The notes beneath the pieces are model-generated. The model saw nothing but the letters and a program-made list of their open reading frames with translations. It was not told the origin of the DNA and made no database searches. This document shows positions 5,509 to 63,883 of a stretch of 64,000 bases of DNA, in pieces (position 1 is the first letter of the stretch; every line of letters begins with the position of its first letter). The DNA comes from Candidatus Uhrbacteria bacterium (lineage in GTDB: Bacteria > Patescibacteriota > Patescibacteriia > UBA9934): assembly GCA_943359325.1 (NCBI GenBank), contig CALRHD010000001.1, positions 6,240 through 70,239 on the forward strand, given 5' to 3'. The position numbers and the translations under genes are program-made.

Positions 5509-8049
5509 ATGGCCGCAAAAAAGAAATCCGACATCTCGAAAAGTACAGAACTTTCGGGCGATGCAGAGAGAACGGCAATGGTGCCGATTGGCAATGTTAT
5601 TCAACAGGGTATTTCGGAGGAAATGCGCCGTGCGTATTTGGATTACGCCATGTCGGTCATCGTGTCCCGTGCGCTGCCCGATGTTCGCGATGGCATGAAG
5701 CCTGTGCATCGTCGTATTTTGTATGCCATGTGGAGTGTTGGCCTTCGCGCGAACGCAAAATTTCGTAAGTCAGCAACGATTGTTGGTGAAGTGCTCGGTA
5801 AATATCATCCGCACGGCGATACATCGGTGTACGACAGCATGGTACGCATGGCGCAGGATTTTAGCTATCGCTATCCACTTGTAACGGGGCAGGGCAACTT
5901 TGGGAGCATGGATGGTGACAGCGCAGCCGCGTATCGCTACACCGAAGCAAAATTGTCGTCGATTTCGGAAGAGCTGCTTATCGACATCGAAAAAAATACG
6001 GTCGACTTTCGTCCGAACTACGATGGAAGCCACGAAGAACCGACGGTGTTACCTGCCCGCCTTCCGAACTTGCTTATTAACGGCACGCTCGGCATTGCGG
6101 TCGGCATGGCGACGAATATTCCGCCACACAACACTCGTGAAGTGTGTCACGCAATTTTGGCGCTCATTGACAACCCAGAGTCGACACTCGAAGACATTTT
6201 GGAGCACATTCCGGGGCCTGACTTTCCAACGGGAGGCATTGTTTACGGCGCAAGTGACCTGCGAACGGCGTATGCCACGGGTCGTGGCGGCGTGGTGTGC
6301 CGTGCAAAAGCGGAAATTGTGGAGAATAAAAAGGGTGAAGAAATTATTGTCGTCGAAGAAATTCCGTACATGGTGAACAAGGCGACGCTTATTGAGAAGA
6401 TTGCCGACTTGGTGCGCGACAAAAAGCTGGAAGGCATTCGCGACCTGCGTGACGAAAGCAACAAAGAAGGCGTACGCATTGTCGTCGAGCTCAAGAAAGA
6501 CGCGTATCCTCGAAAGGTGTTGAATCGCTTGTTTCAATTGACGCCACTCCAGACGTCGTTCCACTACAACATGCTTGCACTTGTCGACGGTATTCAGCCG
6601 CGCATTTTGAACGTGAAGCAGATTTTGGAGGAACATATTAAGCACCGCAAGGAAGTTGTGCGTCGTCGTACGGAGTTTGATTTGGCGAAGATTGACGAAC
6701 GCCTGCACATTTTGGAAGGGTTACGCATTGCACTTGCGCACATTGACGACGTGATCGCGACCATTAAAAAGTCGAATGACAAAGACGAGGCGCGGGCGAA
6801 CTTGATGAAGAAATTCAAAATGAGCTACGCCCAGGCGGTCGCGATTTTGGAAATGCGTTTGCAGAGCCTCGCGAACTTGGAGCAGATGCGTATTGAGCAG
6901 GAATATGCCGAGAAGATGAAATTGAAAGCTGATCTCGAAGCGATTCTCAAGTCGGAGAAAAAGATGCTTGCGGTTATTCGCGGAGAAGTTGAGGCGCTTA
7001 TTGCACAGTACGGCGACGAACGCCGCACAAAAATCGTGAAGGGCGGCATAAAAGAATTCTCGATGGAAGACATTATTGCCGATACTGCGGTTGTTATCAT
7101 GATGACGAAAGACGGCTACATTAAGCGTTTGCCGTCGGATACGTTTAGCCAGCAGGGGAGAGGCGGGAAGGGTGTTATTGGGTTGACGACGAAGGAGGAA
7201 GACAGTATTGAGGCGATTTATTCGGCGACGACGCACCAAGACATGATGTTCTTTACGTCGCGGGGCAGAGTATTCCGTTTGAAGGCGTACGATATTCCTG
7301 AGGCGTCCCGGACAGCAAAGGGGCAGGCAATTGTGAATTTCCTAGAGCTCGGTCCGGGTGAAAAAGTGTCGGCGGTGTTGACGGGAGATCTCAAAAAAGA
7401 GGTAAAGGCAAAATACATCATCATGGTGACGAGCCGAGGGACGATTAAAAAGACGTCCGTTGATGACTTCGAGAATGTCCGTAAGTCGGGGTTGATCGCG
7501 ATTAAATTGAACGACGGCGACAACTTGGAATGGGTGTTTACGTCGACGGGCAAAGACGACATCATGCTTGTGACAACCGCGGGCATGTCCATTCGATTCA
7601 GCGAAGAAGACGTCCGGCCAATGGGGCGTGTTGCGGCGGGCGTTCGCGGCATCAAATTGCGCGGTGAAGACGCGGTGATTGGCATGTCCGTGTTGCGACA
7701 GGAAGACATTACGGCAGGCAGGTTGCTGCTTATTATCATGCAAAATGGGTACGGCAAACGCACGAGCATTGAAGAGTATAGTGTACAGAATCGCGGTGGC
7801 ATGGGCGTGAAAACCGCACAGATTACGGCAAAGACTGGCCCACTTGTCGCAGGGCATATTGTAGAGGAAAAAGACGGCCGCGACCTCCTTATCGTAAGCG
7901 CTGGCGGTCAAGTCATTCGTACCGCCGTCAACACGGTGTCTATTATTGGCCGTGCCACTCAAGGTGTTCGTGTCATGCGTTTCAAGCAGGAGGGCGATAA
8001 AGTTGCAAATGCGACGCTGGTGGGAGGGGATGAGAAGGGGGAGAATTGA
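5509..8049 (+). CDS. gyrA: DNA gyrase subunit A
   Basis: 846 aa with the GyrA signature [28 protein letters not shown], the catalytic Tyr region and C-terminal beta-pinwheel repeats. gyrB is not adjacent. Confidence 0.97.
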
Positions 8050-8365: not shown

Positions 8366-8426
8366 CCCACACAGCGCCCGAAAGGGCGTTTTGTGATTCC
8401 GCTTTGCTTCGGTATACTACGGCCGT

Positions 8427-9570: not shown

Positions 9571-9581
9571 CGATAACAAAA

Positions 9582-9604
9582 AAGAAGCCCGAGGCTTCTT
9601 TTTT
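9582..9604. terminator. intrinsic terminator hairpin shared by rnc (+) and tRNA-Arg (-)
   Basis: Hairpin AAGAAGCC-CGA-GGCTTCTT followed by TTTT. On the other strand it is preceded by AAAAAA, so it can act in both directions. Confidence 0.6.
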
Positions 9605-9680
9605 GGTGCGGCGTGAGGGACTTGAACCCCCGACCTTCTGGTTCGAAGCCAGACACTCTATCCAGCTGAGCTAACGCCGC
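9605..9680 (-). tRNA. tRNA-Arg (anticodon TCG)
   Basis: The reverse complement folds as a cloverleaf with acceptor GCGGCGT/ACGCCGC and D-arm GCTCAGCTGGATAGAGT. The anticodon stem-loop is TCTGG-CTTCGAA-CCAGA, and the T-arm is GGGGGTTCAAGTCCCTC. CCA is encoded. Confidence 0.8.
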
Positions 9681-20970: not shown

Positions 20971-21047
20971 GGGCCTGTGATGGTAATGGTTAACCATAGC
21001 TGCGTTGAGACCAGCAAATACGGGTTCAAATCCCGCCAGGTCCACCA
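20971..21047 (+). tRNA. tRNA, atypical (anticodon loop GUUGAGA; anticodon most likely UGA, Gln-UUG alternative)
   Basis: 77 nt. Acceptor GGGCCTG/CAGGTCC with one G-U pair, T-arm GGGTTCAAATCCCG, CCA encoded. The anticodon stem GCTGC/CCAGC has a C-C mismatch at its loop-proximal pair, and the variable loop is only 5 nt. Confidence 0.6.
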
Positions 21048-23497: not shown

Positions 23498-23511
23498 ATG
23501 GGGAGTATGCC

Positions 23512-23558
23512 ACAGTGCCGAGCACTGACAACACCAGGCACTGTCAGTGCCTGGTGTT
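23512..23558. repeat. palindrome family copy A (small hairpin + 15-bp-arm perfect palindrome)
   Basis: CAGTGC-CGA-GCACTG at 23512-23526. Then CAACACCAGGCACTG-T-CAGTGCCTGGTGTTG at 23528-23558. It lies between the divergent rsmB-like gene (start 23497) and leuS (start 23608). Confidence 0.8.
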
Positions 23559-23607
23559 GGTTTCTGTCTGGCGTTTGGGGTCTTCTATCTGATACCATGA
23601 TCCTCGT

Positions 23608-25905: not shown

Positions 25906-27230
25906 TGAAATTCGTTTGGACGCTGTCGTGGGTGGGGAGTGCGGTGCTTGTTGCGATTATTGTGGCGGCGATTATTCGGATCCCGTTTTTTCATCCTGCG
26001 GCAGATTCGGTTGCGTTTTCGGTGGGGGAGCATCGTGTTGAGGGCAATGTTATTGACGTTGATCGCGGCGGAGAAACGGCAGGATTGACACTCGACATGG
26101 TCGACGTCGACGATGTCGCAAAGCGCAACCGCGTGCTTTTGCGCGCTCCTGTTGATCTTCTTCCGAACATTGGTGACCGTATTTCAGTATTTTGCACGCT
26201 CGAAGCTCCACAACCGTTCGACGGGTTTGCATACGACAAATTTTTAGCAATTCGCGACGTGTATGCGACGTGTCGAACGAACGACCTCCCGCTCCTCGTT
26301 CGTGCGAACGCTGACCACCGTGTATTGACGCAGCTTGCGAAAATTCGCGCAGGTTCGATAGCGACGATTCGCGCGGCACTTCCCGAACCGCAGGCGACGC
26401 TCCTCGCCGGATTGTTGCTTGGCGACGCAGGGTTCAGCACTGCATGGCGCGACCGATTTCTTGCAACAGGTACGTCGCATATTGTCGCGGCAAGCGGCTA
26501 CAACGTATCGATGGTTGTTAAGGTTCTGTTCGGTACGCTTATAATGTTCGGCCTGCGACGTCAGCGTGCATTTTGGATTCTGCTTGGCGCGATTGCCGTG
26601 TATGCCGTGTTCGCAGGACTTTCTGCCGCGGTGGTTCGTGCCGGCGTCATGGCGTCGATTATCTTGTTGACGCACCAACTCGGCCGCAAAACGTCGATGC
26701 GCAATATCGTGCTGCTCGCAGTCGCCGCGATGCTCACTATCGAGCCGCGTCTTCTGCTGTATGACGTCGGGTTTCAGCTTTCGGTTGTGTCGACAATCGC
26801 CCTCGTATGGGCTGCACCCATCATCGAAAAACGACTGCGCTGGATCCCCGAAGCGTATGCGCTCCGCGACATTATGGCGAGCACCATTGCCGCAACCGCA
26901 TGCACATTGCCTATCGTCATCATCAGTTTTGGTCAGGTGTCGCTTGTCGGTCCTTTCGTCAACCTGCTCGTGCTTCCTGTATTGCCGTTTGCGATGGCGT
27001 ATGGCGCGATAGGTTTTTGTTCGGGCGTAAAGATTTTTATGATTCCGGCGTGGGGGTTATTGTCGTATATGCTTGGCGTGATTCGTAGTGTCGCAATGAT
27101 TCCATTCGCTGTGGTGACGATTCCCATGGGCGGGCGTATCGCGGTCGCGATTATTGTTACTCTGTTTCTCATTTATTTATGGCGAACATTTTTCGTATTC
27201 AAAACTTCACACGACTCGCCGCTGCGATAA
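25902..27230 (+). CDS. comEC: competence protein ComEC/Rec2, membrane channel part (DUF4131 + competence domain)
   Basis: 442 aa. An N-terminal OB-like region is followed by a polytopic membrane domain carrying the ComEC signature GTSHIVAASGYNVSMV. Confidence 0.8.
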   Translation: MMKFVWTLSWVGSAVLVAIIVAAIIRIPFFHPAADSVAFSVGEHRVEGNVIDVDRGGETAGLTLDMVDVDDVAKRNRVLLRAPVDLLPNIGDRISVFCTLEAPQPFDGFAYDKFLAIRDVYATCRTNDLPLLVRANADHRVLTQLAKIRAGSIATIRAALPEPQATLLAGLLLGDAGFSTAWRDRFLATGTSHIVAASGYNVSMVVKVLFGTLIMFGLRRQRAFWILLGAIAVYAVFAGLSAAVVRAGVMASIILLTHQLGRKTSMRNIVLLAVAAMLTIEPRLLLYDVGFQLSVVSTIALVWAAPIIEKRLRWIPEAYALRDIMASTIAATACTLPIVIISFGQVSLVGPFVNLLVLPVLPFAMAYGAIGFCSGVKIFMIPAWGLLSYMLGVIRSVAMIPFAVVTIPMGGRIAVAIIVTLFLIYLWRTFFVFKTSHDSPLR

Positions 27231-28045
27231 TTGTTGCGTTGGCAGTGCTTAGTGTTGCCGCGTGGCGTGCGGGGACGTGGTTTGACGACACTGCATTGAC
27301 GGTGTGGGTATTTGACGTTGGGCAGGGTGATGCGATTTTTATTGATGCGCCGACCAAACAAATTCTTATTGACGGCGGACGTGACGCCACGGTGCTCGAA
27401 AAACTTTCAGCCGTGTTGCCGCCGTGGGATAGGTCGATCGACGTGATGATCGCAACGCATCCGCATGCCGACCATGTGCGTGGTTTGAATAGGGTGCTCG
27501 AGGCGTATGATGTCGGCGAAGTCGTCACAAGCGGCGTGTCGTATGGCGAAGTGCCCGCGATTGCGTTTCAAAAACTCGTCGGCGACGCAACGGTCGCAAC
27601 GGCAGGAATGACGTGGGACTTGGGGCACGGCGCGCGGCTCGATGTGGTGTGGCCGGCGACGGCAATGGAGGGTGCGGTGCTCGACAATGTGCACGAAGGC
27701 AATGTGGTGACGTTGCTCACCTATGGCGGAACAACCGTGCTGCTCACAGGTGACGTGGAGCAGGCAGAAGAGGATCAGTTTGTGCGGGGACTTCCGCATG
27801 TCGATGTTCTCAAAGTTGGTCATCATGGGAGCGATACGTCGACAGGGTTTTCGCTTTTGAACATCACGTCGCCGACATATGCCGTCATTTCCGTCGGCAA
27901 AGAAAATGACTACGGCCACCCGAGCAATCTCGTCGTCGATCGTTTACGGCGGGCAGGGGCGGTTGTGCTCCGCACCGACCTAGACGGCGACATTCGCATT
28001 CGTTCAACAGGCGGCGAACCCGACGTCGCACGGATTGGGTTGTAA
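27179..28045 (+). CDS. ComEC-type metallo-beta-lactamase domain protein with own signal anchor
   Basis: 288 aa. It overlaps the comEC 3' end by 52 nt in another frame. It has an N-terminal TM helix and MBL motifs HPHADHVRG and GHHGSD, so it corresponds to the ComEC C-terminal nuclease-like domain encoded separately. Confidence 0.75.
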   Translation: MANIFRIQNFTRLAAAIIVALAVLSVAAWRAGTWFDDTALTVWVFDVGQGDAIFIDAPTKQILIDGGRDATVLEKLSAVLPPWDRSIDVMIATHPHADHVRGLNRVLEAYDVGEVVTSGVSYGEVPAIAFQKLVGDATVATAGMTWDLGHGARLDVVWPATAMEGAVLDNVHEGNVVTLLTYGGTTVLLTGDVEQAEEDQFVRGLPHVDVLKVGHHGSDTSTGFSLLNITSPTYAVISVGKENDYGHPSNLVVDRLRRAGAVVLRTDLDGDIRIRSTGGEPDVARIGL

Positions 28046-28077
28046 AAAGTGGAGAGATTCCCTACTATGCACGCATT

Positions 28078-32014: not shown

Positions 32015-32695
32015 ATGATTTGGTCCCTCTTTTCCATTGCTCCACTGCTTGCCTTCCTCTGGATTTTTGTTGTGGTCATGTCGCTTTCTGTGCATGAGTG
32101 TTGCCATGCGTTGGCAGGGAAGTTGCTTGGCGACACAACAGCGGAACGTGCGGGGCGACTCACGTTGAACCCATTCGCACACCTCGACCCCGTTGGCTTC
32201 CTCATGTTGCTCTTCATTGGCTTTGGCTGGGCAAAGCCTGTGCCGTATAACCCGCATGCACTTCAACACCCTATTCGCGACTCAGTGTTGATTGGTCTCG
32301 CGGGCCCTGCGTCAAACATTCTTCTCGCACTTTTGTCGGGCGCGGTTTTTTATATGCTTGTTGTGAGTGGTATTGTGTCGACGACAAGCATGTTGGCGAT
32401 TTTCTTGGTACTCACCGTGTTCATCAACGGCATTCTCGCTGCATTTAACGTCATTCCTTTGCCACCACTCGACGGCTCAAAAATCGTCGACGCAATACTC
32501 GCCGCAACACGCCAGCACGAACTTGCAGCGATGTTTACACGATTCGGGTCATTGTTGCTGCTTGGGCTTGTTATTGTGTCATCGACGTCAAACATTCCTA
32601 TCTTCGATTTTATTTCGTTTCCTGCATCGTGGTTTTGTGACGTTGTGTTGACTCCGGTGTGTACAGAAGTTTTTTCTCACGCACTTGGTGCATGA
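32015..32695 (+). CDS. M50 family (site-2 protease-like) membrane metalloprotease
   Basis: 226 aa. HExxH within a TM segment (HECCHAL), a downstream LDG motif, and 4-6 TM helices. Confidence 0.8.
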   Translation: MIWSLFSIAPLLAFLWIFVVVMSLSVHECCHALAGKLLGDTTAERAGRLTLNPFAHLDPVGFLMLLFIGFGWAKPVPYNPHALQHPIRDSVLIGLAGPASNILLALLSGAVFYMLVVSGIVSTTSMLAIFLVLTVFINGILAAFNVIPLPPLDGSKIVDAILAATRQHELAAMFTRFGSLLLLGLVIVSSTSNIPIFDFISFPASWFCDVVLTPVCTEVFSHALGA

Positions 32696-33248: not shown

Positions 33249-33279
33249 CAACACTACGCACTGACAGTGCGTAGTGTTG
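33249..33279. repeat. palindrome family copy B
   Basis: CAACACTACGCACTG-A-CAGTGCGTAGTGTTG, followed by ATAAT. It lies about 67 bp upstream of the rpsL start. Confidence 0.8.
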
Positions 33280-33345
33280 ATAATGTGTGGATAGGTTAGG
33301 CGCGTTGACCGCTATTTCTGCTTATGTTAGAGTTCTCGCACTTTT

Positions 33346-36415: not shown

Positions 36416-36428
36416 GTTGGCGCAGAGG

Positions 36429-36470
36429 CGGGGCTTTCGTCGACGAACGACGTGCCCCGTTTTTGTTTTT
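36429..36470 (+). terminator. intrinsic terminator after fusA
   Basis: CGGGGC-[CGTCGACGAACGACG]-GCCCCG hairpin followed by TTTTTGTTTTT. Confidence 0.7.
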
Positions 36471-36497
36471 GACGGTATATTTTTGGGGATGTATAGT
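36469..36497 (+). promoter_or_regulatory. sigma70-like promoter for the TA module
   Basis: TTGACG, then a 17-nt spacer, then TATAGT. It sits about 25 bp upstream of the antitoxin start. Confidence 0.55.
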
Positions 36498-36522
36498 ATA
36501 AGAAGAAATAAGCAAAATTCTT

Positions 36523-36726
36523 ATGGCTTCAACGATCACTATTTCACTGCCCGCAGTCACGATAAAAAAAGTTCGTGCGCAAGTGGCAACGGGGCAGTTT
36601 GCTTCGACGAGTGAATTTTTTCGCGACCTTCTTCGTCATTGGGAGGAGCAGAGTTTGGTAAAACAAATTGGGCGGAATAAAAAAGAAAAACCTATCAAAT
36701 TGACATCATTTCAGGATTGGCAATAA
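36523..36726 (+). CDS. ribbon-helix-helix antitoxin (ParD/CopG-like)
   Basis: 67 aa. An N-terminal beta-strand plus two helices (ISLPAVTIKKVRAQVATGQFASTSEFFRDLLRHWEE). It lies directly upstream of the toxin with a 6-nt gap. Confidence 0.7.
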   Translation: MASTITISLPAVTIKKVRAQVATGQFASTSEFFRDLLRHWEEQSLVKQIGRNKKEKPIKLTSFQDWQ

Positions 36727-36732
36727 GCCAAT

Positions 36733-36990
36733 ATGGAGGTGTATTATTATGCGAGTTTTTTGCGTCAGGTAAAGAAACTTCCAAAGTCAATTCGTGCAGT
36801 GGCTATTGAACGGACGAAGCTTTTTATCAAAAATCCTCACGATCCATCACTAAAACTTCATAAACTGCACGGACAACTCAAAGGCCATTTTGCATTTTGG
36901 GTGGATTTTCGTATAAGAATTATCCTAGAAATAAAATCAGAACGGGCATATTTCCATGCTATCGGTGATCATGGTGTATATAATACATAA
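36733..36990 (+). CDS. ParE/RelE-family toxin
   Basis: 85 aa. It has the RelE/ParE fold pattern and a C-terminal ...FHAIGDHGVY, which is typical of ParE/RelE toxins. Confidence 0.7.
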   Translation: MEVYYYASFLRQVKKLPKSIRAVAIERTKLFIKNPHDPSLKLHKLHGQLKGHFAFWVDFRIRIILEIKSERAYFHAIGDHGVYNT

Positions 36991-37080
36991 CGAAGCTGTT
37001 TTATTGGGCAAAGATTTTAACCATGGTTTTGTCACTCTACGTGAGATGTGTTATGACACCCATGTCACAAGGAGCTCCCC

Positions 37081-37293
37081 ATGTCCGAAGTTATCACGAG
37101 ACTTGAGCGTGCAGAGAATGATTTGTCTCAATTTCGCCGTGCCGCAGCAATCATCGTCCTCTTATCGCCGTTGATCTTCTTCGATCGATTCAGGGCCTGT
37201 CATCGGTGGAATACGTGCAGCTTGGCATTACGCCCGAGGAATATAGTGCCGTGCGAAAATTTGCGACGGGGTCGCCATGACCATTCGCATTAA
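37081..37293 (+). CDS. small ORF with Shine-Dalgarno, possibly frameshifted (continues in +2 frame to TGA 37278-37280)
   Basis: AAGGAG lies 7 nt upstream of the ATG. The frame-A product turns nonsensical after about 35 aa. Frame B reads SIQGLSSVEYVQLGITPEEYSAVRKFATGSP and ends in an ATGA overlap with the next ORF. Confidence 0.25.
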   Translation: MSEVITRLERAENDLSQFRRAAAIIVLLSPLIFFDRFRACHRWNTCSLALRPRNIVPCENLRRGRHDHSH

Positions 37294-37468
37294 CCTTGTT
37301 GAGTGGTTACAAAAGCGTGAACGAGCTTTGCGTCGTGCAATGAAAAAAGCGTACGACGCTCCTGCGTCGCCCGAAGAACAATGGAGCAAAGAACACGCAG
37401 TCGACGTATCGGGAACTCGCGCGCTTCTCAAGAACGCTCTCCGCAAGCTCGGCCGCCATTCGTCGTAG
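37277..37468 (+). CDS. small basic ORF translationally coupled to the preceding ORF
   Basis: 63 aa (MTIRINLVEWLQKRERALRRAMKKAYD...). The ATGA overlap links it to the upstream reading frame. Confidence 0.3.
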   Translation: MTIRINLVEWLQKRERALRRAMKKAYDAPASPEEQWSKEHAVDVSGTRALLKNALRKLGRHSS

Positions 37469-37511
37469 CCCCGCCCGTCATCGATCCCCGATGACCGCGG
37501 GGTGTTTTGTT

Positions 37512-37982
37512 TTACACATTTGTTTTTGCATGCAACCACAGTAGCTCGAACATGGTGCGGAGCGTCACCGACGTATCGCCGCTTGTGACAAGAATGACGG
37601 AATTTTCTTTGCGCGTAGTAATGAACGCGGCTTCATTTTCGAATAGCAAAATACTTGCGGGCAAGACAACGTCGCTTGGGAGGAATCGCGACTCGCGTAA
37701 TTCGTTTTTGTCGCGTGCAACAAACTTGTGTGTTTCACGATTCTCGGGAATGAGCTGACGACTTCGTATGCCGCGTTTAATGCGCTCGGCAATAATGCGC
37801 TGCATGAGGTATCGTTCTTTGACGCCGCTTTCGTATAGCCTTCGCCAAAATTGTTTAAACCCATCGGTGCCCTCATACATTGTGACGCCTGTTTTCTCGT
37901 GCGCAGTGCCGTGGAGCGACGAGAGAAGAGGGAGGATCGCTTCGAATGTCCGTTGGCGTTCCTCAAGTTTGCGCAAAAACAT
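37512..37982 (-). CDS. hypothetical protein
   Basis: 156 aa with an ATG start at 37980-37982 and protein-like composition. Family unknown. Palindrome copy C lies about 70 bp upstream. Confidence 0.45.
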   Translation of the reverse strand: MFLRKLEERQRTFEAILPLLSSLHGTAHEKTGVTMYEGTDGFKQFWRRLYESGVKERYLMQRIIAERIKRGIRSRQLIPENRETHKFVARDKNELRESRFLPSDVVLPASILLFENEAAFITTRKENSVILVTSGDTSVTLRTMFELLWLHAKTNV

Positions 37983-38052
37983 TTCTGGTTGCTCGGCAAC
38001 ATAGTGTGTGCGGCCTTTGTTTTATTCACACGTTGTCCACACTTAGCACTGT

Positions 38053-38086
38053 CAGTGCTTAGTGTTGATAATACGAAAACAAATCG
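38053..38086. repeat. palindrome family copy C (one mismatch)
   Basis: GTCCACACTTAGCACTG-T-CAGTGCTTAGTGTTGA, followed by TAAT. Its left arm is nearly identical to copy D, and its right extension matches copy B. Confidence 0.75.
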
Positions 38087-38128
38087 CCCCGCGGCGAGGA
38101 GAGGCTCGGGCGGAGCGATGGAGCAAGT

Positions 38129-38563
38129 CTATTTTTGCGGATTTCCTTTTGCGAAACCGATGAGTGGTCGGTCGGGTAGGAACACTTCGATCTGCCAACA
38201 CATGGGAAGGCGCTCTTTCGCGAATCGCATGCAACAAGCGAGGATGGCCGCGTTCATATTCGTGATGACGAACATGTCTCGCGTTTCTCGATCGAACAGC
38301 CCAACGACGTGTACGATGAGTTCTTCGCCGTGGCCAATAAGGTACCGGTCGCTCGGCATGCTGACAGTCACATGCTCCCGAGTGAGTTCGAGCTCGGGAA
38401 TGTTGGCAACCGCGCCCTTGATCTTCATGATGAGTTGCTCGAGTTCGTGCTGATGACGGTTGATTATTCGAGGTATGCCGTAGATGACGATGTGAGGCAT
38501 TGAAACTCCGAGGGTGCAGCAACATGTTTGCACCGATCGTCGTCTCTGGCAAGACTTGTTCAT
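38129..38563 (-). CDS. hypothetical protein (possible Pro-1 tautomerase-superfamily fold, speculative)
   Basis: The product probably begins MPHIVIYGIPRI, about 123 aa. There is no firm family assignment. Confidence 0.35.
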   Translation of the reverse strand: MNKSCQRRRSVQTCCCTLGVSMPHIVIYGIPRIINRHQHELEQLIMKIKGAVANIPELELTREHVTVSMPSDRYLIGHGEELIVHVVGLFDRETRDMFVITNMNAAILACCMRFAKERLPMCWQIEVFLPDRPLIGFAKGNPQK

Positions 38564-38601
38564 ATTGACGCGCGAGAATTGTCGCCATAAGATGGCGCCA
38601 T

Positions 38602-38991
38602 ATGGTGAACGATCAATTTGAACGCATCATGCGTTTTGCACAACGGACGGGCGATAGGCTTATTGTCACCGACCCGTCGGGGAACGAGCCAGTTGTTATT
38701 ATGGGGCTCGATGAGTACGAGGCGCTTGTGGAAGGTGCGATGGGACCAGACGGTAAATACCCAATGATGGGTGATATCGACATGGATGATGAGGAAGAAG
38801 ATTTTGTGAGCGAGTACGGTGAAGCGCCAACGCTTGAAATTATTGAGGAGCCTGTCATGGAGTCTCCCGTACAGCCGATTATCGACATTCCTACAGAACC
38901 AGAGAAAACTGTGCCAATAATGCAGAATAAAGCCCCAGAAAAACAAGCCGAAATCAACGAAGAGCAGTTTTACTTGGAACCGCTCGGATAA
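38602..38991 (+). CDS. protein with Phd/YefM-like N-terminal domain and long acidic tail
   Basis: The N-terminus ...DRLIVTDPSGNEPVVIMGLDEYEALVEG resembles the YefM/Phd antitoxin core (..ILITR.G..V.VL.S.EEYESL). The C-terminal 70 aa are highly acidic. There is no toxin gene downstream (tuf follows). Confidence 0.45.
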   Translation: MVNDQFERIMRFAQRTGDRLIVTDPSGNEPVVIMGLDEYEALVEGAMGPDGKYPMMGDIDMDDEEEDFVSEYGEAPTLEIIEEPVMESPVQPIIDIPTEPEKTVPIMQNKAPEKQAEINEEQFYLEPLG

Positions 38992-39073
38992 TCACAATCT
39001 CGCTCTTGCGCAATTTTAGGCCTTTTGTTATAGTCTCGGCACTTCACTTTTTAAGAAACCCTTTAATTCAGCT

Positions 39074-55257: not shown

Positions 55258-55375
55258 TAAGGCGTTGACGCGGCTGAACACCCGCTGAGCCGAGAACAAT
55301 TGGGAAAAGTACAAAATGAGGTGGCACCGCGGAGCAATTCGCCCTCATATGTCTGTTATCATATTATGATAGCGG

Positions 55376-56725
55376 ATGTATGTGGGTTATTTTATTTCTA
55401 TGCAAGCAATTATCAGTAAACTTTCTGACCTCGTTGGTCAAGCCGTGACGCTCAAGGGTTGGGCGTATAATTTTCGGAGTAGTGGAAAAATCTTTTTTCT
55501 CCAGTTGCGTGACGGAAGCGGTTTTGTGCAGGTGGTGTATAGCGCAGCGGAAATTTCTGAAGAGCAGTGGGAAAGTTTGAATACGTTAACGATTGAGTCA
55601 TCGGTCGAAGTGACGGGAGTAGTGAAAGCGGAGCCGCGTGCGCCGAGTGGGTTCGAACTCACAGGCACGGGGTTTGGCATGATCCAACGTACGGAAGAAG
55701 AATATCCCATTGGGAAAAAAGAGCATGGGCCGGAATTTTTGTTCGACAATCGTGATCTTGCGCTTCGCACGAAAACGACGTGGGCGGTACTCCGTATTCG
55801 CGACCGTGTATTCTACTCAATTGAACAATTTTTTCACGAAGAAGGGTTTGTCCGTTTTGATACGCCGATTTTGCAGCCAACAAGTTGCGAAGATACGACG
55901 CAATTGTTTACTGTCGATTACTACGGCGACCCGATGTATTTGTCGCAGTCGGGTCAGCTGTATAGTGAAGCGGGGATTATGACGTTTGGAAAGGTGTATG
56001 ACTTTGGGCCCGTGTTTCGCGCAGAAAAAAGCAAGACACGCCACCATTTGTCGGAGTTATGGATGATGGACGCGGAAATGGCGTTCCACGATCAGGCGAT
56101 GAACATGGACGTACAAGAGCGCATGGTAAAACGCATAGTGAAGGATGTCCTTGACCACTGTGCACAAGAGCTGAAAATTTTAGAGCGCGACACGACAGTT
56201 TTGCAGCGTCTTGTCGACGAACCGTTCGTGCACCTCACACACGCTGAAGCAAAGCGTATCCTCAAGGAGGAGGGGTTGGTGACGGGCGAAGGAACGCAGG
56301 ACGACACGTATTGGCAAGACGATATGTCGACAGAAGAAGAAATCGCATTGGGGAACAAATATAAACTTCCCGTGTTTATTGAAAATTATCCTGCGGAAAT
56401 AAAGTCATTCTACATGAAGCGATTCACGGATGAACAGGGCATTGTTCGTGCGCGATGTGCAGATCTTATTGCGCCGGAGGAGGGGCGAGAGATAATTGGG
56501 GGGAGTCAGCGTGAAGAAAGTTATGAGGAGCTGAAAAAAGAAATTATTGATCGTAATTATCCGCTTGCTGAGTATGAGTGGTACTTGAACACGCGGAAGT
56601 TTGGAAGCGTGCCGCATAGCGGATTCGGTATTGGCCTCGAGCGTACCGTTCGGTGGATTTCAGGCGTGCACCACATTCGTGAGACAATAGCGTTTCCGAG
56701 GATGTTAAATCGCATGAAGCCATAA
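55376..56725 (+). CDS. asnS: asparaginyl-tRNA synthetase
   Basis: Class IIb aaRS with an OB anticodon domain, FRAEKS motif 2, and an AsnRS-type C-terminus ...IIGGSQREE...GSVPHSGFGIGLERTVRWISGVHHIRETIAFPR. Confidence 0.88.
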   Translation: MYVGYFISMQAIISKLSDLVGQAVTLKGWAYNFRSSGKIFFLQLRDGSGFVQVVYSAAEISEEQWESLNTLTIESSVEVTGVVKAEPRAPSGFELTGTGFGMIQRTEEEYPIGKKEHGPEFLFDNRDLALRTKTTWAVLRIRDRVFYSIEQFFHEEGFVRFDTPILQPTSCEDTTQLFTVDYYGDPMYLSQSGQLYSEAGIMTFGKVYDFGPVFRAEKSKTRHHLSELWMMDAEMAFHDQAMNMDVQERMVKRIVKDVLDHCAQELKILERDTTVLQRLVDEPFVHLTHAEAKRILKEEGLVTGEGTQDDTYWQDDMSTEEEIALGNKYKLPVFIENYPAEIKSFYMKRFTDEQGIVRARCADLIAPEEGREIIGGSQREESYEELKKEIIDRNYPLAEYEWYLNTRKFGSVPHSGFGIGLERTVRWISGVHHIRETIAFPRMLNRMKP

Positions 56726-56733
56726 TCCTTTGC

Positions 56734-56797
56734 TGTCATCCTCGCGAATGCGGGGATCCATAAGTGGCTCTGGATTCCCACTTTCGTGGGAATGACA
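56734..56797 (+). repeat. two-hairpin intergenic element, copy 2
   Basis: TGTCA-TCCTCGCG-AAT-GCGGGGAT-CCA...ATTCCCAC-TTTC-GTGGGAAT-GACA. It is paralogous to 17694-17760. Confidence 0.7.
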
Positions 56798-56812
56798 GGA
56801 TTCTCGAAGCAT

Positions 56813-58126
56813 ATGAAAAACAGAATTCTTGTAAAAGATCTTGCGGGCAAATTGGGAGAGAGTGTTGTGATTGCCGGATGGCTCAACACGCTGCGTGACA
56901 TGAAAAACTTTGGGTTTGCGATTGTGCGCGACCGAACAGGTTTGGCGCAGGTTGTTGTTGACGTGGCACAGCTTGAGCAGCTGAAGGGTTTACAACTGGA
57001 GACGGTCGTCAAGGTGACGGGCGTGATTAAAGAAAAAAAGTCGAAGGATCCAAGCATAAAAGAAGTTGAGATGCAGGCGGAGACGCTGGAAATTTTGTCT
57101 CCTGTTGTTGACGTTGTGCCTGTCGAAATTAGCAAGCCAGAGCTCGATGTACAGCTCGACACACTGATCGACAATCGCGTGATTACGCTTCGTCACCCAA
57201 AGCAGCGCGCGATTTTTCGTGTACAAGCGGCGCTTGTGCACGGTTATCGGCAGTATATGGAGGCGCAGGGGTTCACGGAAATTTTCTTTCCGATTTTGGC
57301 GGGAGCGGCAAGTGAAGGCGGGGCAGAATTTTTTAAGGTCGACTACTACGGTCGTGAGGCAACGTTGTCGCAGTCTGCACAATTGTATAAACAAATTACG
57401 ATGGGCGTCTACGAAGGCGTATACGGATTGTCATATTCGTTCCGTGCGGAAAAATTTGCAACATCGCGTCATCTTACTGAATTTAATCAGTTTGAATTTG
57501 AGTTGGGGTTTGTCGACGACATGGATGAAGTCATGCAGCATGCCGAGGACTCTATTCGTGCAATGATGGCAACGGTTGAACGGGGCTGTGCCGATGAACT
57601 CGCATTGCTCAATGTGACACTGCCGCCGCTTGGCGAAAAGTTCCCGCGTATTACGCTTAAGGCGGCGCTTGAGGCGTATCGCGACGAAGGCGGTGTCGAT
57701 GAAACGAGTGAGCCAGATTTGTCGCCGGCAGGGGAGCGCTGGCTCTCGACGGTGTGGGCGCCAAAACATTTTGGCAGCGGTTTTGTATTTGTGACCGACT
57801 ACCCAACGGTAAAACGTCCATTTTACGCGAAGCGGGACCCGAACGACCAGTCGAATACGATTACGTTCGACTTGATTGGTTTTGGTAGCGAGATTATCAG
57901 CGGTGGCATGCGCATAAACCGTTACGACGAACAGGTGCAGGCGCTGAAAGAAAAGGGGCTAAACCCTGCAGACTTCGAGGATTACCTCACCATGCACAAA
58001 TTTGGCATTCCGCCCGAGGGTGGTTTTGGCATGGGGCTCCAACGCCTCACGCAAAATGTTCTCGGCCTCGCAAACATCAAAGAGGCAACTATCTTCCCGC
58101 GTGACGTGCAGAGGTTGAGGCCGTAG
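56813..58126 (+). CDS. aspS: aspartyl-tRNA synthetase, archaeal/eukaryal-type (type 2)
   Basis: Class IIb aaRS with a C-terminal ...GGMRINRYDEQVQALKEKGLNPADFEDYL...GIPPEGGFGMGLQRL...FPRDVQRL. The ATG start at 56813 is preferred over the track GTG at 56786, which lies inside the repeat. Confidence 0.88.
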   Translation: MKNRILVKDLAGKLGESVVIAGWLNTLRDMKNFGFAIVRDRTGLAQVVVDVAQLEQLKGLQLETVVKVTGVIKEKKSKDPSIKEVEMQAETLEILSPVVDVVPVEISKPELDVQLDTLIDNRVITLRHPKQRAIFRVQAALVHGYRQYMEAQGFTEIFFPILAGAASEGGAEFFKVDYYGREATLSQSAQLYKQITMGVYEGVYGLSYSFRAEKFATSRHLTEFNQFEFELGFVDDMDEVMQHAEDSIRAMMATVERGCADELALLNVTLPPLGEKFPRITLKAALEAYRDEGGVDETSEPDLSPAGERWLSTVWAPKHFGSGFVFVTDYPTVKRPFYAKRDPNDQSNTITFDLIGFGSEIISGGMRINRYDEQVQALKEKGLNPADFEDYLTMHKFGIPPEGGFGMGLQRLTQNVLGLANIKEATIFPRDVQRLRP

Positions 58127-58380: not shown

Positions 58381-58420
58381 TGCCGCTCCTCCATGGGGCG
58401 GCATCTTATTTTTTTTGGTT
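58381..58420 (+). terminator. intrinsic terminator
   Basis: TGCCGC-TCCTCCATGGG-GCGGCA hairpin followed by TCTTATTTTTTTTGGTTTT. Confidence 0.55.
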
Positions 58421-58431
58421 TTGCACAGTTT

Positions 58432-58466
58432 GTCCACACTAAGCACTGACAGTGCTTAGTGTGGAC
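58432..58466. repeat. palindrome family copy D (17-bp perfect arms)
   Basis: GTCCACACTAAGCACTG-A-CAGTGCTTAGTGTGGAC. It lies 33 bp upstream of the scpA start. Confidence 0.8.
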
Positions 58467-58498
58467 GTAGCGTCACTATTTGCTACAATACCACTGTT

Positions 58499-59197
58499 AT
58501 GCAATTTGCGGTCACGCAGGAGGCGTTTACTGGGCCGCTGGGGCTTCTTTTAGAGGTTTTGGAGAAAAGGGAACTCGACATCACCACCGTGTCGCTTGCG
58601 GCTGTGGCGGACGAGTTTTTGGTTCGCATAGCGGAGCAAGAAGTGCCGCCAGAGGAGTTGGCCGACTTTTTGCTTGTCGCGAGCAGGTTGATTTACATGA
58701 AAAGTCGAGAGCTCATGCCGTATTTGCGGTTGGACGACGAAGAAGAGGGCGCGAATGCGCTCACCGAACAGCTGCGTATTTACAAAGAATTTGTTGCAGC
58801 AGCGGAACGTCTTGAGGCACGATTTATGCAGAGTATCCTCTACGTTCGCCCTTCGATTCGGCGGAGTCGTGCGCCCACGTTTCTCCCGCCCGCCAATGTA
58901 CTTGCCTCGACGCTTGCCGATGTGTATCGGACGGTACTCAAACGCCTCGAACCGTTTTTTGCGCTGCAACATGTTTCAATGGAGCGCGTAAAGTCGATAG
59001 AAGAGCGAATTCTCGAATTGCAGGGCGCCATTGCGTCGCGTGCGCAAATGAGTTTCGGCGACGCGGTGCGTGGCGCAACGAAGAAGGTCGACGTGGTGAT
59101 GAGTTTTCTTGCACTTCTCGAACTGTTACGCCGCAACATTGTTCGCGTCACACAACAGGCGGCGTGGGGAGAGATTATGATTCATCGGGTTGATTGA
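58499..59197 (+). CDS. scpA: segregation and condensation protein A
   Basis: 232 aa. The N-terminus FTGPLGLLLEVLEKRELDITTVSLAAVADEF is typical of ScpA. Confidence 0.85.
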   Translation: MQFAVTQEAFTGPLGLLLEVLEKRELDITTVSLAAVADEFLVRIAEQEVPPEELADFLLVASRLIYMKSRELMPYLRLDDEEEGANALTEQLRIYKEFVAAAERLEARFMQSILYVRPSIRRSRAPTFLPPANVLASTLADVYRTVLKRLEPFFALQHVSMERVKSIEERILELQGAIASRAQMSFGDAVRGATKKVDVVMSFLALLELLRRNIVRVTQQAAWGEIMIHRVD

Positions 59198-61669: not shown

Positions 61670-61746
61670 TGGTTGCAGGGGCTGGATTTGAACCAGCGAC
61701 CTTCGGGTTATGAGCCCGACGAGCTGCCAGGCTGCTCTACCCTGCG
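61670..61746 (-). tRNA. initiator tRNA-fMet (anticodon CAT)
   Basis: The reverse complement reads CGCAGGG-TA-GAGCAGCCTGGCAGCTC-G-TCGGG-CTCATAA-CCCGA-AGGTC-GCTGGTTCAAATCCAGC-CCCTGCA-A-CCA. It has a C1-A72 mismatch and three consecutive G-C pairs in the anticodon stem, both hallmarks of a bacterial initiator tRNA. Confidence 0.8.
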
Positions 61747-61812
61747 ACGAGGACTATGCCGTGTAATTGACTTTCTGTCAATCAAAAGAACCTCCAAATG
61801 AGGAGGTTCTTT

Positions 61813-61888
61813 TGGTGGCTAGGGCGGGGATCGAACCCGCGACAGCAGGCTTATGAGTCCTGTGCTCTACCAACTGAGCTACCCAGCC
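61813..61888 (-). tRNA. tRNA with CAT anticodon (elongator Met or Ile2-lysidine)
   Basis: The reverse complement reads GGCTGGG-TA-GCTCAGTTGGTAGAGC-A-CAGGA-CTCATAA-GCCTG...GCGGGTTCGATCCCCGC-CCTAGCC-A-CCA. Confidence 0.75.
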
Positions 61889-61975: not shown

Positions 61976-62063
61976 TATTGGCAAAAAGTGAACATACTAT
62001 AACAAGGTCAACTTGATTTGACAAGGAACTTTTGTTACCATTCTTTCGCGTAACGCAACACAG

Positions 62064-62149
62064 GCCGTGGTGGCGGAATGGTATACGCGACGGACTCAAA
62101 ATCCGTTCCCCGCAAGGGGTTGAGGGTTCGAGTCCCTCCCGCGGCACCA
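62064..62149 (+). tRNA. tRNA-Leu (anticodon CAA)
   Basis: 86 nt. Anticodon stem-loop ACGGA-CTCAAAA-TCCGT, a long variable arm TCCCCGCAAGGGGTT, T-arm GAGGGTTCGAGTCCCTC. CCA is encoded. Confidence 0.85.
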
Positions 62150-62211
62150 AAAAGTCCTTCTTGAGCCTGTGGGCGACGGGGGATTTTTTGTTTGGTATAC
62201 TATTCCTGTCT

Positions 62212-62994
62212 ATGGCACATATTGTTTCGGTGGTGAATCAAAAGGGCGGAGTGGGGAAGACGACAACGTCAATGAATCTTGCGGCGTATCTTGCCCATTT
62301 TGGCAAATACGTCCTTCTTGTCGACCTTGATCCACAGGGCAATGCCACGAGTGGCTTCGGTCACGACGTCAACACATTGGCAGGAACATACGAAGCATTA
62401 GCAGGAACACAGCGCATGAAGGATTTATTTTTGAAGACTCCACACGACGGGCTGACGCTTTTACCTGGAACGCCCAATTTGGCGGGCGCAGCTGTTGAGC
62501 TTGTGAACGAATTTAACCGTGAGCGTAAACTACAGCAACTCCTTCTCGAAGTACGGAATGACTACGACTATATTATTATCGACAATCCACCGTCCTTGGG
62601 GTTGCTCACGATCAACGGACTCGTTGCAAGCGATAGCGTACTCATTCCTGTGCAAGCGGAGTACTATGCACTAGAAGGTATCGGTCAACTACTGAACACC
62701 GTCAACCTCATAAAACAAAACATCAAGCCCGAGCTTGAAATTATGGGTGCGGTGATCACGATGTTCGACACGAGAACAAATTTGAGTAATCAAGTGTTGC
62801 AAGAATTATATAAACATTTTCCTGGAAAGATTTTTCGTTCCGTGATTCCGCGGAGCATTCGATTAGCAGAAGCGCCGAGTTTTGGAAAGTCAATTCTGCA
62901 TTACGACCCTGAAAGTAAGGCAGCGAAAGCATACGAACGACTGGCACGAGAATTCTTGTTGCGCGAGGAAGCGCAGGTAAGCACCGCAGAATAA
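62212..62994 (+). CDS. parA: chromosome partitioning ATPase ParA/Soj
   Basis: 260 aa from the ATG at 62212 with the deviant Walker A NQKGGVGKTTT. The upstream part of the track ORF runs antisense through tRNA-Leu. Confidence 0.93.
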   Translation: MAHIVSVVNQKGGVGKTTTSMNLAAYLAHFGKYVLLVDLDPQGNATSGFGHDVNTLAGTYEALAGTQRMKDLFLKTPHDGLTLLPGTPNLAGAAVELVNEFNRERKLQQLLLEVRNDYDYIIIDNPPSLGLLTINGLVASDSVLIPVQAEYYALEGIGQLLNTVNLIKQNIKPELEIMGAVITMFDTRTNLSNQVLQELYKHFPGKIFRSVIPRSIRLAEAPSFGKSILHYDPESKAAKAYERLAREFLLREEAQVSTAE

Positions 62995-62995
62995 T

Positions 62996-63883
62996 ATGGC
63001 AAAGCCAATGGGAGGACTGGGGCGCGGGTTGGGGTCGTTGATCCCGACTTTGAAACCGCAAAGCGATCTCGTAGGGGTAGGCTTCATGCCTGACCTGCGT
63101 GACGACGCCGTAGACGGAAGTTTGCGTATTCAGGACGTCAGTCCGTCGAAGATTGTCGAAAATCCGTATCAGCCACGGCGATATTTTAGCCAGGAAGAAT
63201 TGGACGACTTGGCGGCGAGCATCAAAGAGCATGGCATTTTGCAACCGCTTGTGGTGACGGAGAAGGGCGATGGTACGTTCGAACTTATTGCCGGCGAACG
63301 TCGTCTGCGCGCATCGAAGCAAATAGGATTGTCGACGGTGCCTGTTATTGTGCGCGAAGCAGATAACAGGAAGAAGCTCGAATGGGCGCTTATCGAAAAC
63401 ATCCAGCGTCAGGACTTGAACGCTATCGAAGAAGCAATTGCATATAAACAACTTGTTGCCGACTTCGGGTTGACGCAAGATCAGGTTGCCGAGCGTGTGG
63501 GGAAAAGTCGTCCGCAAATTACGAACACGATTCGCTTGCTCGACCTACCGCAGGAAATGCGTGTCGCGCTGCAAGAAGGAAAAATTAGCAAGAGTCATGC
63601 ACGCACACTGCTTGCTGAAGTCAATGCCGACCGTCGTACAGAACTGTTTCAGCGTATACTCGAAGGCGGTTTTACTGTGAAGAGCGCCGAAGATACGGTG
63701 CGCACTACGTCGCAACGAGCGCGTGTGGTGAAAGATGCAAACATTGAAGAAATAGAGCGCACGTTGCGCGAAAAAATGGGCACGAAGGTAGAAATAAAAA
63801 TGAGCAGCACGGCGTCAGGAACTGTTGCTATTCATTTCTATAGCAAGGACGACTTGAAAGCGCTTATTTCTCACTTGACGTAA
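62996..63883 (+). CDS. parB: chromosome partitioning protein ParB/Spo0J
   Basis: ParB box (GERRLRAS), an HTH, and the N-terminal motif ...ENPYQPRR. Confidence 0.93.
   Translation: MAKPMGGLGRGLGSLIPTLKPQSDLVGVGFMPDLRDDAVDGSLRIQDVSPSKIVENPYQPRRYFSQEELDDLAASIKEHGILQPLVVTEKGDGTFELIAGERRLRASKQIGLSTVPVIVREADNRKKLEWALIENIQRQDLNAIEEAIAYKQLVADFGLTQDQVAERVGKSRPQITNTIRLLDLPQEMRVALQEGKISKSHARTLLAEVNADRRTELFQRILEGGFTVKSAEDTVRTTSQRARVVKDANIEEIERTLREKMGTKVEIKMSSTASGTVAIHFYSKDDLKALISHLT

Follow-up and report, generated by a model that had tools for sequence, protein, structure and literature searches.

REPs are high-copy elements of 20-40 bp, which carry an unpaired GTAG or CGTC tag and are often arranged as inverted pairs (PMC3733652). 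Most are found downstream of ORFs, between genes in a unidirectional or convergent arrangement; copies within genes occur as well, and RAYT transposases have been linked to the GTAG REPs (PMC3733652). The 64-kb stretch of DNA analysed here (the window) contains a family of palindromes which resembles REPs and REPINs in being short, extragenic, species-specific and dispersed, and in having arms that stay complementary while their sequence differs between copies. A second point of comparison is quasipalindrome correction, a known mutational mechanism in which intrastrand template switching turns imperfect inverted repeats into perfect ones. The host belongs to the Patescibacteria, which have tiny, repeat-poor genomes, and whose promoters, regulators and mobile DNA are little known.

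The initial annotation had described a family of four palindromes with a common half-site, and this family is present as described. The core GCACTG-W-CAGTGC (GCACTGWCAGTGC) has four matches in the window, compared to 0.07 expected, and none of 100 shuffles reached four. Three perfect palindromes with arms of at least 12 nt and a spacer of 0-1 nt were observed, compared to 0.03 in 30 dinucleotide shuffles. Palindromes A (positions 23529-23559, CAACACCAGGCACTG-T-CAGTGCCTGGTGTTG) and B (33249-33279, CAACACTACGCACTG-A-CAGTGCGTAGTGTTG) both have the structure 15+1+15, palindrome D (58432-58466, GTCCACACTAAGCACTG-A-CAGTGCTTAGTGTGGAC) has 17+1+17, and all three are perfect, as had been claimed. In palindrome C (38035-38068, GTCCACACTTAGCACTG-T-CAGTGCTTAGTGTTGA) two of the 17 positions do not pair, rather than one. 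The coordinates reported initially were exact for B and D, those of A were off by one, and those of C (38053-38086) had arisen by a digit transposition. Beside A, at 23513-23527, is a mini-hairpin, CAGTGC-cga-GCACTG, in which the core hexamer is re-used in inside-out order, and which falls within the 16-nt spacer of the putative rsmB promoter. When folded as single-stranded DNA, every copy was predicted to form a hairpin, with z-scores of -3.3 to -6.6 compared to shuffles.

A lone half-site (CAGTGCTTAGTGTTG, 27243-27257, plus strand) is identical to the right arm of C. It lies inside a Lactamase_B (ComEC-C-like) gene (27179-28045), in a weakly conserved N-terminal membrane segment, and the bases before it (GCGTTG-G) show a weak resemblance to the absent inner arm. 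All four full copies lie in the non-coding DNA, which makes up about 12 % of the window, and the lone half-site is the one member inside a gene. Written as the search pattern ACACNNNGCACTGWCAGTGCNNNGTGT, the family has full copies of 31-35 bp. A search with an nhmmer profile revealed no degenerate copies, only the one extra lone half-site, which indicates that the family is either young or constrained. As a further 6.2 kb beyond the left end of the window contain no copy, the family comprises four full copies and one half in about 70 kb. No larger repeat unit was found around the copies beyond approximately 5-9 nt of flank. The idea of a DNA-uptake sequence was rejected, since GCACTG and CAGTGC occur 36 times outside the palindromes, compared to approximately 31 expected, and are thus not enriched.

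All nine arms match ACACNNNGCACTG and the form (C/G)nCACAC/CAACAC-N3-GCACTG, and the central base is always A or T, in agreement with the earlier claim that a half-site sequence is common to all copies. The 13-bp core is invariant across the four copies, and within the arms the invariant blocks are the GCACTG core and CAC at positions 10-12. The outer part of the arms is of two types: CAACAC is found in both arms of A, both arms of B, the right arm of C and the lone half-site, and GTCCACAC in both arms of D and the left arm of C. The N3 block occurs as CAG, TAC, TAA and TTA. The match between the two arms of a copy far exceeds that between arms of different copies, and the positions which vary between copies are mirrored within the copy. 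Three pairs were changed on both sides, and 94 % of the cells were paired, compared to 16-48 % with a slid partner; the covariation score was reached by 11 of 500 shuffles and, coming from four sequences only, is modest but consistent. From this covariation within copies it follows that intrastrand pairing is either of importance or constantly re-established.

Copy C is a left/right chimera, which the initial annotation had suspected. Its left arm together with about 8 nt of flank (CACACGTT / CACAGTTT; CACASKTT) matches D, and its right arm together with the following ATAAT matches B. No direct repeats that would represent a target-site duplication flank any of the copies. The flanks of the eight arm ends have no GTAG or CGTC tag in common; GTAGCGTC follows D only, on the 3' side.

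The genes in the window encode FtsH, GyrA, IF-2, LeuS, the proteins of the str and S10-spc-alpha ribosomal operons, two class II aminoacyl-tRNA synthetases, ScpAB and ParAB. The best non-self matches of LeuS, at 77 % identity, bear the names Candidatus Uhrbacteria or Patescibacteria, which indicates a CPR bacterium without a close sequenced relative. The motif seems to be restricted to this lineage. An exact scan with the pattern CACNNNGCACTGWCAGTGCNNNGTG over 185,579 species-representative genomes (596 Gb) gave one chance match, in Streptomyces; in the JGI metagenomes the same pattern had ten unrelated matches (low-GC eukaryote-like contigs and tandem CACTG arrays) and in viral contigs none. 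BLAST of D against plasmids and phages gave nothing, and Rfam had no match overlapping the palindromes at either the gathering threshold or E<=1. A literature string search on the core returned primers only, and a full-text search returned no report of REP-like repeats in CPR bacteria. The family thus appears to be undescribed. Within the same population (99.6-100 % identity), two assemblies from other samples, L021 and L001, carry D and B unchanged, and no presence/absence polymorphism of copies was seen in them. L021 (ERR3719144) matches the window up to position 61712, inside a tRNA gene (61673-61746, minus strand), after which 300 nt diverge (L021 6486-6784); this divergence could be a strain-specific insertion, a tRNA intron or an assembly chimera.

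Syntenic loci were compared in four related genomes, two reached via LeuS (L015/L016 and L017) and two via TrmB homologues (L023-L025 and L026-L028). Despite the common gene order, none of the syntenic regions compared in L015, L016, L017, L023 and L026 (rsmB/leuS, rpsL and fusA-tuf) contains the motif. Palindrome A is located in the 110 bp that separate the divergent genes rsmB (start 23497, minus strand) and leuS (start 23608), whereas in the relatives the rsmB-leuS interval holds gdh and one further gene; no gdh remnant was found between the two genes in the window. In L017 the divergent rsmB-gdh spacer contains, at 7545-7582, an unrelated palindrome with 15-nt arms, ATCAAAGCCTAGCTT-GTACAATG-AAGCTAGGCTTTGAT, in a position equivalent to that of A. 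The spacer between the M50 peptidase gene and rpsL is 650 bp in the window compared to 80 bp in L015, and the approximately 570 bp that L015 lacks contain both B and a rare small ORF (ORF128), which has only four weak relatives. ORF128 and ORF156 were considered as partner genes of the palindromes and rejected, since they are not homologous to each other and ORF156 is the truncated TrmB gene described below. The two ENA contigs which cover the window share an overlap of exactly 141 nt (the assembler k) at 32543-32683, where the M50 peptidase gene has its 3' end; this suggests that the left edge of the extra DNA around B is an assembly-graph branch or a population variant.

Copy C is located beside a 5'-truncated regulator gene of the TrmB family (PF01978; 37512-38023, minus strand), the homology of which covers only residues ~67-250 of the homologues. 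These homologues have 250-253 amino acids and an N-terminal PF01978 winged helix-turn-helix domain. The truncated gene consists of the C-terminal ~167 codons, i.e. two-thirds, and has a further internal deletion of about 16 amino acids without a frameshift. Both protein and DNA homology to TrmB start at 38023-38018, only 12-17 nt from palindrome C, so that C marks a deletion junction and not a promoter. In the relatives an intact TrmB gene is found divergent from a DUF3307 gene, between fusA and tuf; the winged-helix part of trmB, its promoter and the DUF3307 gene are nowhere in the window. The initial annotation had placed every copy 30-70 bp upstream of a start codon. The distances are right, being 31, 48, 66, 52 and 32 nt from the starts of rsmB, leuS, rpsL, ORF 37512-37982 and scpA, and the statement holds for three-quarters of the copies, but the ATG at 37982 near C is the internal Met80 of the TrmB family. 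Taken together, A, B and C coincide with DNA that has been gained, lost or truncated in comparison with the relatives.

Copy C was also considered as an ancestral trmB operator, as the promoter spacers of L023 and L026 share the words TGGACAAC, GCGTAGTGT and GACAACAC with the arms. The words are located in the -35/-10 regions, are individually near chance and form no conserved palindrome, and the idea was dropped. The fusA-tuf interval of the str operon is a variable accessory island in Uhrbacteria-like genomes (window 36416-39073; L023 4222-8711; L026 1313-3306), the contents of which include an RHH-RelE/YafQ-like pair, TrmB, DUF3307 and a Phd-like protein; in the window the DUF3307 gene is replaced by an unrelated gene of 123 amino acids (38129-38500, minus strand).

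Two of the palindromes overlap putative promoters. The putative rsmB promoter (23504-23531, minus strand) reads TTGTCA-16-(TG)CATACT, followed by 6 nt and the ATG; it matches at 9 of 12 positions, has the TG and would give a leaderless mRNA. The TTG of its -35 hexamer is the outer end of palindrome A, and the N-terminus of the protein (MLP) is conserved in L015/L017. The putative scpA promoter (58461-58489, plus strand) reads TGGACG-16-TACAAT, followed by 9 nt and the ATG at 58499, and its -35 hexamer consists of the last 5 nt of the right arm of D and one flanking base. The rpsL promoter of the window (TTGACC at 33305-33310, N17, TAGAGT) has its -35 hexamer 25 nt downstream of the end of B, and the form TTGACC-N17-TAGRST is kept across three genera (window, L015 and L023). 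The -10 hexamer of leuS is also common to the relatives. The distance from the palindrome centre to the -10 hexamer is 35 nt for rsmB, 35 for scpA, 49 for leuS and 64 for rpsL, and the register is thus not constant. In many genes of the window a TANNNT hexamer begins 14-15 nt before the ATG, as in nusB, leuS, orf261, the phd-like gene and scpA (8413-8426, 23593-23607, 28063-28077, 38588-38601 and 58484-58498), in each case without a Shine-Dalgarno sequence. This spacing indicates that leaderless or near-leaderless mRNAs are frequent, and the palindromes would therefore lie outside the transcripts.

The explanation which we consider best, with a probability of roughly 45 %, is that the palindromes form a young, genome-specific family of short dispersed REP/MITE-like repeats, which has partly been co-opted by promoters. 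The restriction to one lineage, the sharp copies, the location in dispensable DNA and at indel points, the chimeric copy and the symmetric, copy-specific arms favour a repeat of this kind over an operator, and of the two possibilities raised in the initial annotation, a protein operator or a promoter-targeting REP-like element, the REP-like one fits better than a regulon operator. The element may exist or propagate as an intrastrand DNA hairpin or cruciform. The hairpin might be needed for copying, as with elements that are mobilised via single-stranded DNA, or the symmetry might be restored by template switching, i.e. by quasipalindrome correction. The chimeric C and the deletion next to it could have resulted from recombination at the invariant core of two copies. 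Read outwards, the outer arm ends give TTG.. or TGGAC., and copies landing 16 nt from a -10 box would supply the -35 element, as seems to have occurred at rsmB and scpA; such a supply to the leaderless promoters would be a secondary co-option and not the primary function. If this is true, a palindrome family which marks indels and supplies -35 boxes would provide a handle on genome rearrangement and on the origin of promoters. Some observations count against a repeat element. There are only four and a half copies in about 70 kb, and neither the scanned ORFs of the window nor the gene tables include a transposase (RAYT, IS200-like or other). The invariant blocks and the extra GCACTG hexamers in the rsmB spacer resemble a protein-recognition sequence, and the identical 35-nt distance at rsmB and scpA could mean a positioned regulator.

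These last observations lead to the main alternative, which we consider unlikely, though still a serious rival: that the palindromes are operators of a lineage-specific dimeric or tetrameric DNA-binding protein, either a transcription factor or a nucleoid-associated protein, which would recognise half-sites ACAC-N3-GCACTG and control rsmB/leuS, the rpsL-rpsG-fusA operon and scpAB. Retention of the half-site sequence in nine of nine arms, and not of structure alone, is what such a protein would require, and the hexamers within the putative rsmB promoter spacer, the overlap of the palindromes with -35 at the same register in two promoters and the existence of a lone half-site all point the same way. 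The lack of decayed copies would be consistent with purifying selection. However, the motif is missing at the orthologous, otherwise conserved promoters of the four related genomes, upstream of rsmB, leuS and rpsL, even where the rpsL promoter itself is kept, and this speaks against the regulon operator that had been proposed. The register varies over the four promoters as a whole, and C abuts a truncated gene with no promoter to regulate. Furthermore, the non-conserved positions are mirror-symmetric within each copy, a symmetry which independent drift of half-sites would not give, and the conserved CAC/GTG blocks are 7-8 bp apart and would thus not be on one helical face. No candidate regulator gene lies beside any copy, and the only nearby HTH gene, the truncated TrmB gene, has lost its HTH. 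If the palindromes were bound by a protein after all, they would represent one of the earliest regulons defined for Patescibacteria.

Also unlikely is the proposal that the palindromes belong to an undescribed hairpin-dependent mobile or recombinogenic system of CPR bacteria, which would reshape a minimal genome, delete or truncate genes such as trmB and seed the -35 elements of leaderless promoters. As the palindromes have neither a GTAG/CGTC tag nor target-site duplications, they would in this case be moved or symmetrised by an enzyme of a kind not yet known.

Tyrosine-recombinase core sites have inverted arms of 11-13 bp, an overlap region of 6-8 bp and a cognate recombinase. The palindromes can be read in this geometry as 12-7-12, i.e. 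as lox/dif-like sites with 12-bp inverted arms and a 7-bp CTG-W-CAG overlap, at which recombination would cause deletions and inversions. The exact left/right chimera with matching flanks is what a crossover in the core would give, three of the copies coincide with rearrangement or indel points, and the 13-bp core is the invariant part of all of them. We nevertheless regard core sites as improbable, since no recombinase gene is present in the window, the positions that the enzyme would bind in the arms differ from copy to copy, and an overlap region that is itself palindromic provides no directionality. The chimera is explained just as well by homologous or palindrome-stimulated recombination.

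A role at the RNA level, as U-tract-less terminators or insulators or as mRNA-stabilising hairpins of the upstream transcripts, is very improbable. The hairpins are very stable, C and D are downstream of genes, and A was flagged as terminator-like by a simple scan. However, the spacers that hold A and B are divergent, the genes leuS, rsmB and scpA appear to be leaderless, which would place the palindromes outside their mRNAs, and Rfam gave no match. C follows the terminator of the gene 38129-38500 (minus strand) by 10 nt, and D is located between a canonical terminator (a hairpin and T8, ~58385-58420) and scpA. The genome uses ordinary A/T-tract terminators, found for instance at 9577-9605, at 61783-61814 and after tuf. 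The rejection of terminators in the initial annotation was thus correct, and so was its statement that no U-tract follows, except for a weak T-rich stretch after A, which here runs between divergent starts. The intrinsic terminator, a GC-rich hairpin with a U-tract where a gene ends, was accordingly set aside as a described counterpart of the family.

Other signals of structured or terminator-like character were observed in the window. Directly 3' of ftsH, at 36-76, a perfect inverted repeat with 17-nt arms (AAATGTAAAAGCGAGCT-N7-AGCTCGCTTTTACATTT) probably acts as a bidirectional terminator and has no relation to the palindrome family. An element at 20971-21047 (plus strand) has a weak tRNA score of 39 bits and a sub-threshold tmRNA match, in which the whole model falls in 77 nt; an unusual tRNA is one possible identity, and the tRNA-like portion of a tmRNA that is split or permuted is another. 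A sub-threshold match (E=0.17) to the 3' end of a T-box is found at 55314-55346 (plus strand), upstream of the first of two tandem paralogues of class II Asp/Asn-tRNA synthetase (55376-56725 and 56786-58126).

The canonical parS is a 16-bp palindrome, TGTTNCACGTGAAACA, which is highly conserved across phyla. A function in chromosome organisation, as a divergent parS-like centromere or another ParB/SMC-loading site, is the least probable explanation: the palindromic sites are few and form a cluster of 35 kb, one is directly upstream of scpA, and parA-parB are present at 62032-63883 while canonical parS (at most two mismatches) is absent from the 64-kb window and the 370 nt beyond parB, but the palindromes have no resemblance to TGTTNCACGTGAAACA, their variable arm positions are not expected of parS, and the stretches fetched from the relatives also lack canonical parS, so that its absence in the window is uninformative.

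The described systems to which the family can be compared each share only some of its features. CIRCE, the operator of HrcA, has the form TTAGCACTC-N9-GAGTGCTAA and is found upstream of chaperone operons. The half-sites of C and D, TTAGCACTG / TAAGCACTG, agree with the CIRCE half-site at 7-8 of 9 bases, but the spacer is 1 nt instead of 9, A and B do not have the TTA, the downstream genes are rsmB, leuS, rpsL and scpA and not groES or dnaK, and there is no hrcA in the window. The stem-loop guide RNAs of the TIGR-Tas systems of CPR bacteria were also considered and rejected, since the palindromes have no spacers and no box C, and no tas gene is nearby. Quasipalindrome correction would explain the perfect symmetry together with the copy-specific arms and is a candidate here, as a mechanism and not as an element family. 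With MITEs that consist of hardly more than a pair of terminal inverted repeats, and with IS ends which donate outward -35 boxes, the palindromes have in common that they are tiny inverted-repeat units at indel or rearrangement points, and that the outward ends of two copies (TTG.. and TGGAC.) serve as putative -35 elements. They differ from MITEs in having no target-site duplications, no parent IS seen and a unit of only 31-35 bp. Compared to REPs and REPINs, the palindromes A, B and D are perfect with a centre of 1 nt, and the unpaired GTAG/CGTC tag is missing. They are single units and not inverted doublets, their sites are divergent spacers or the DNA upstream of genes and promoters, the window showed no RAYT gene, and the host belongs to the Patescibacteria, which the full-text search did not link to REPs. 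The palindromes are thus not demonstrable members of the REP family, but our analysis suggests that they are REP/MITE-like in kind, and that they work like such elements.
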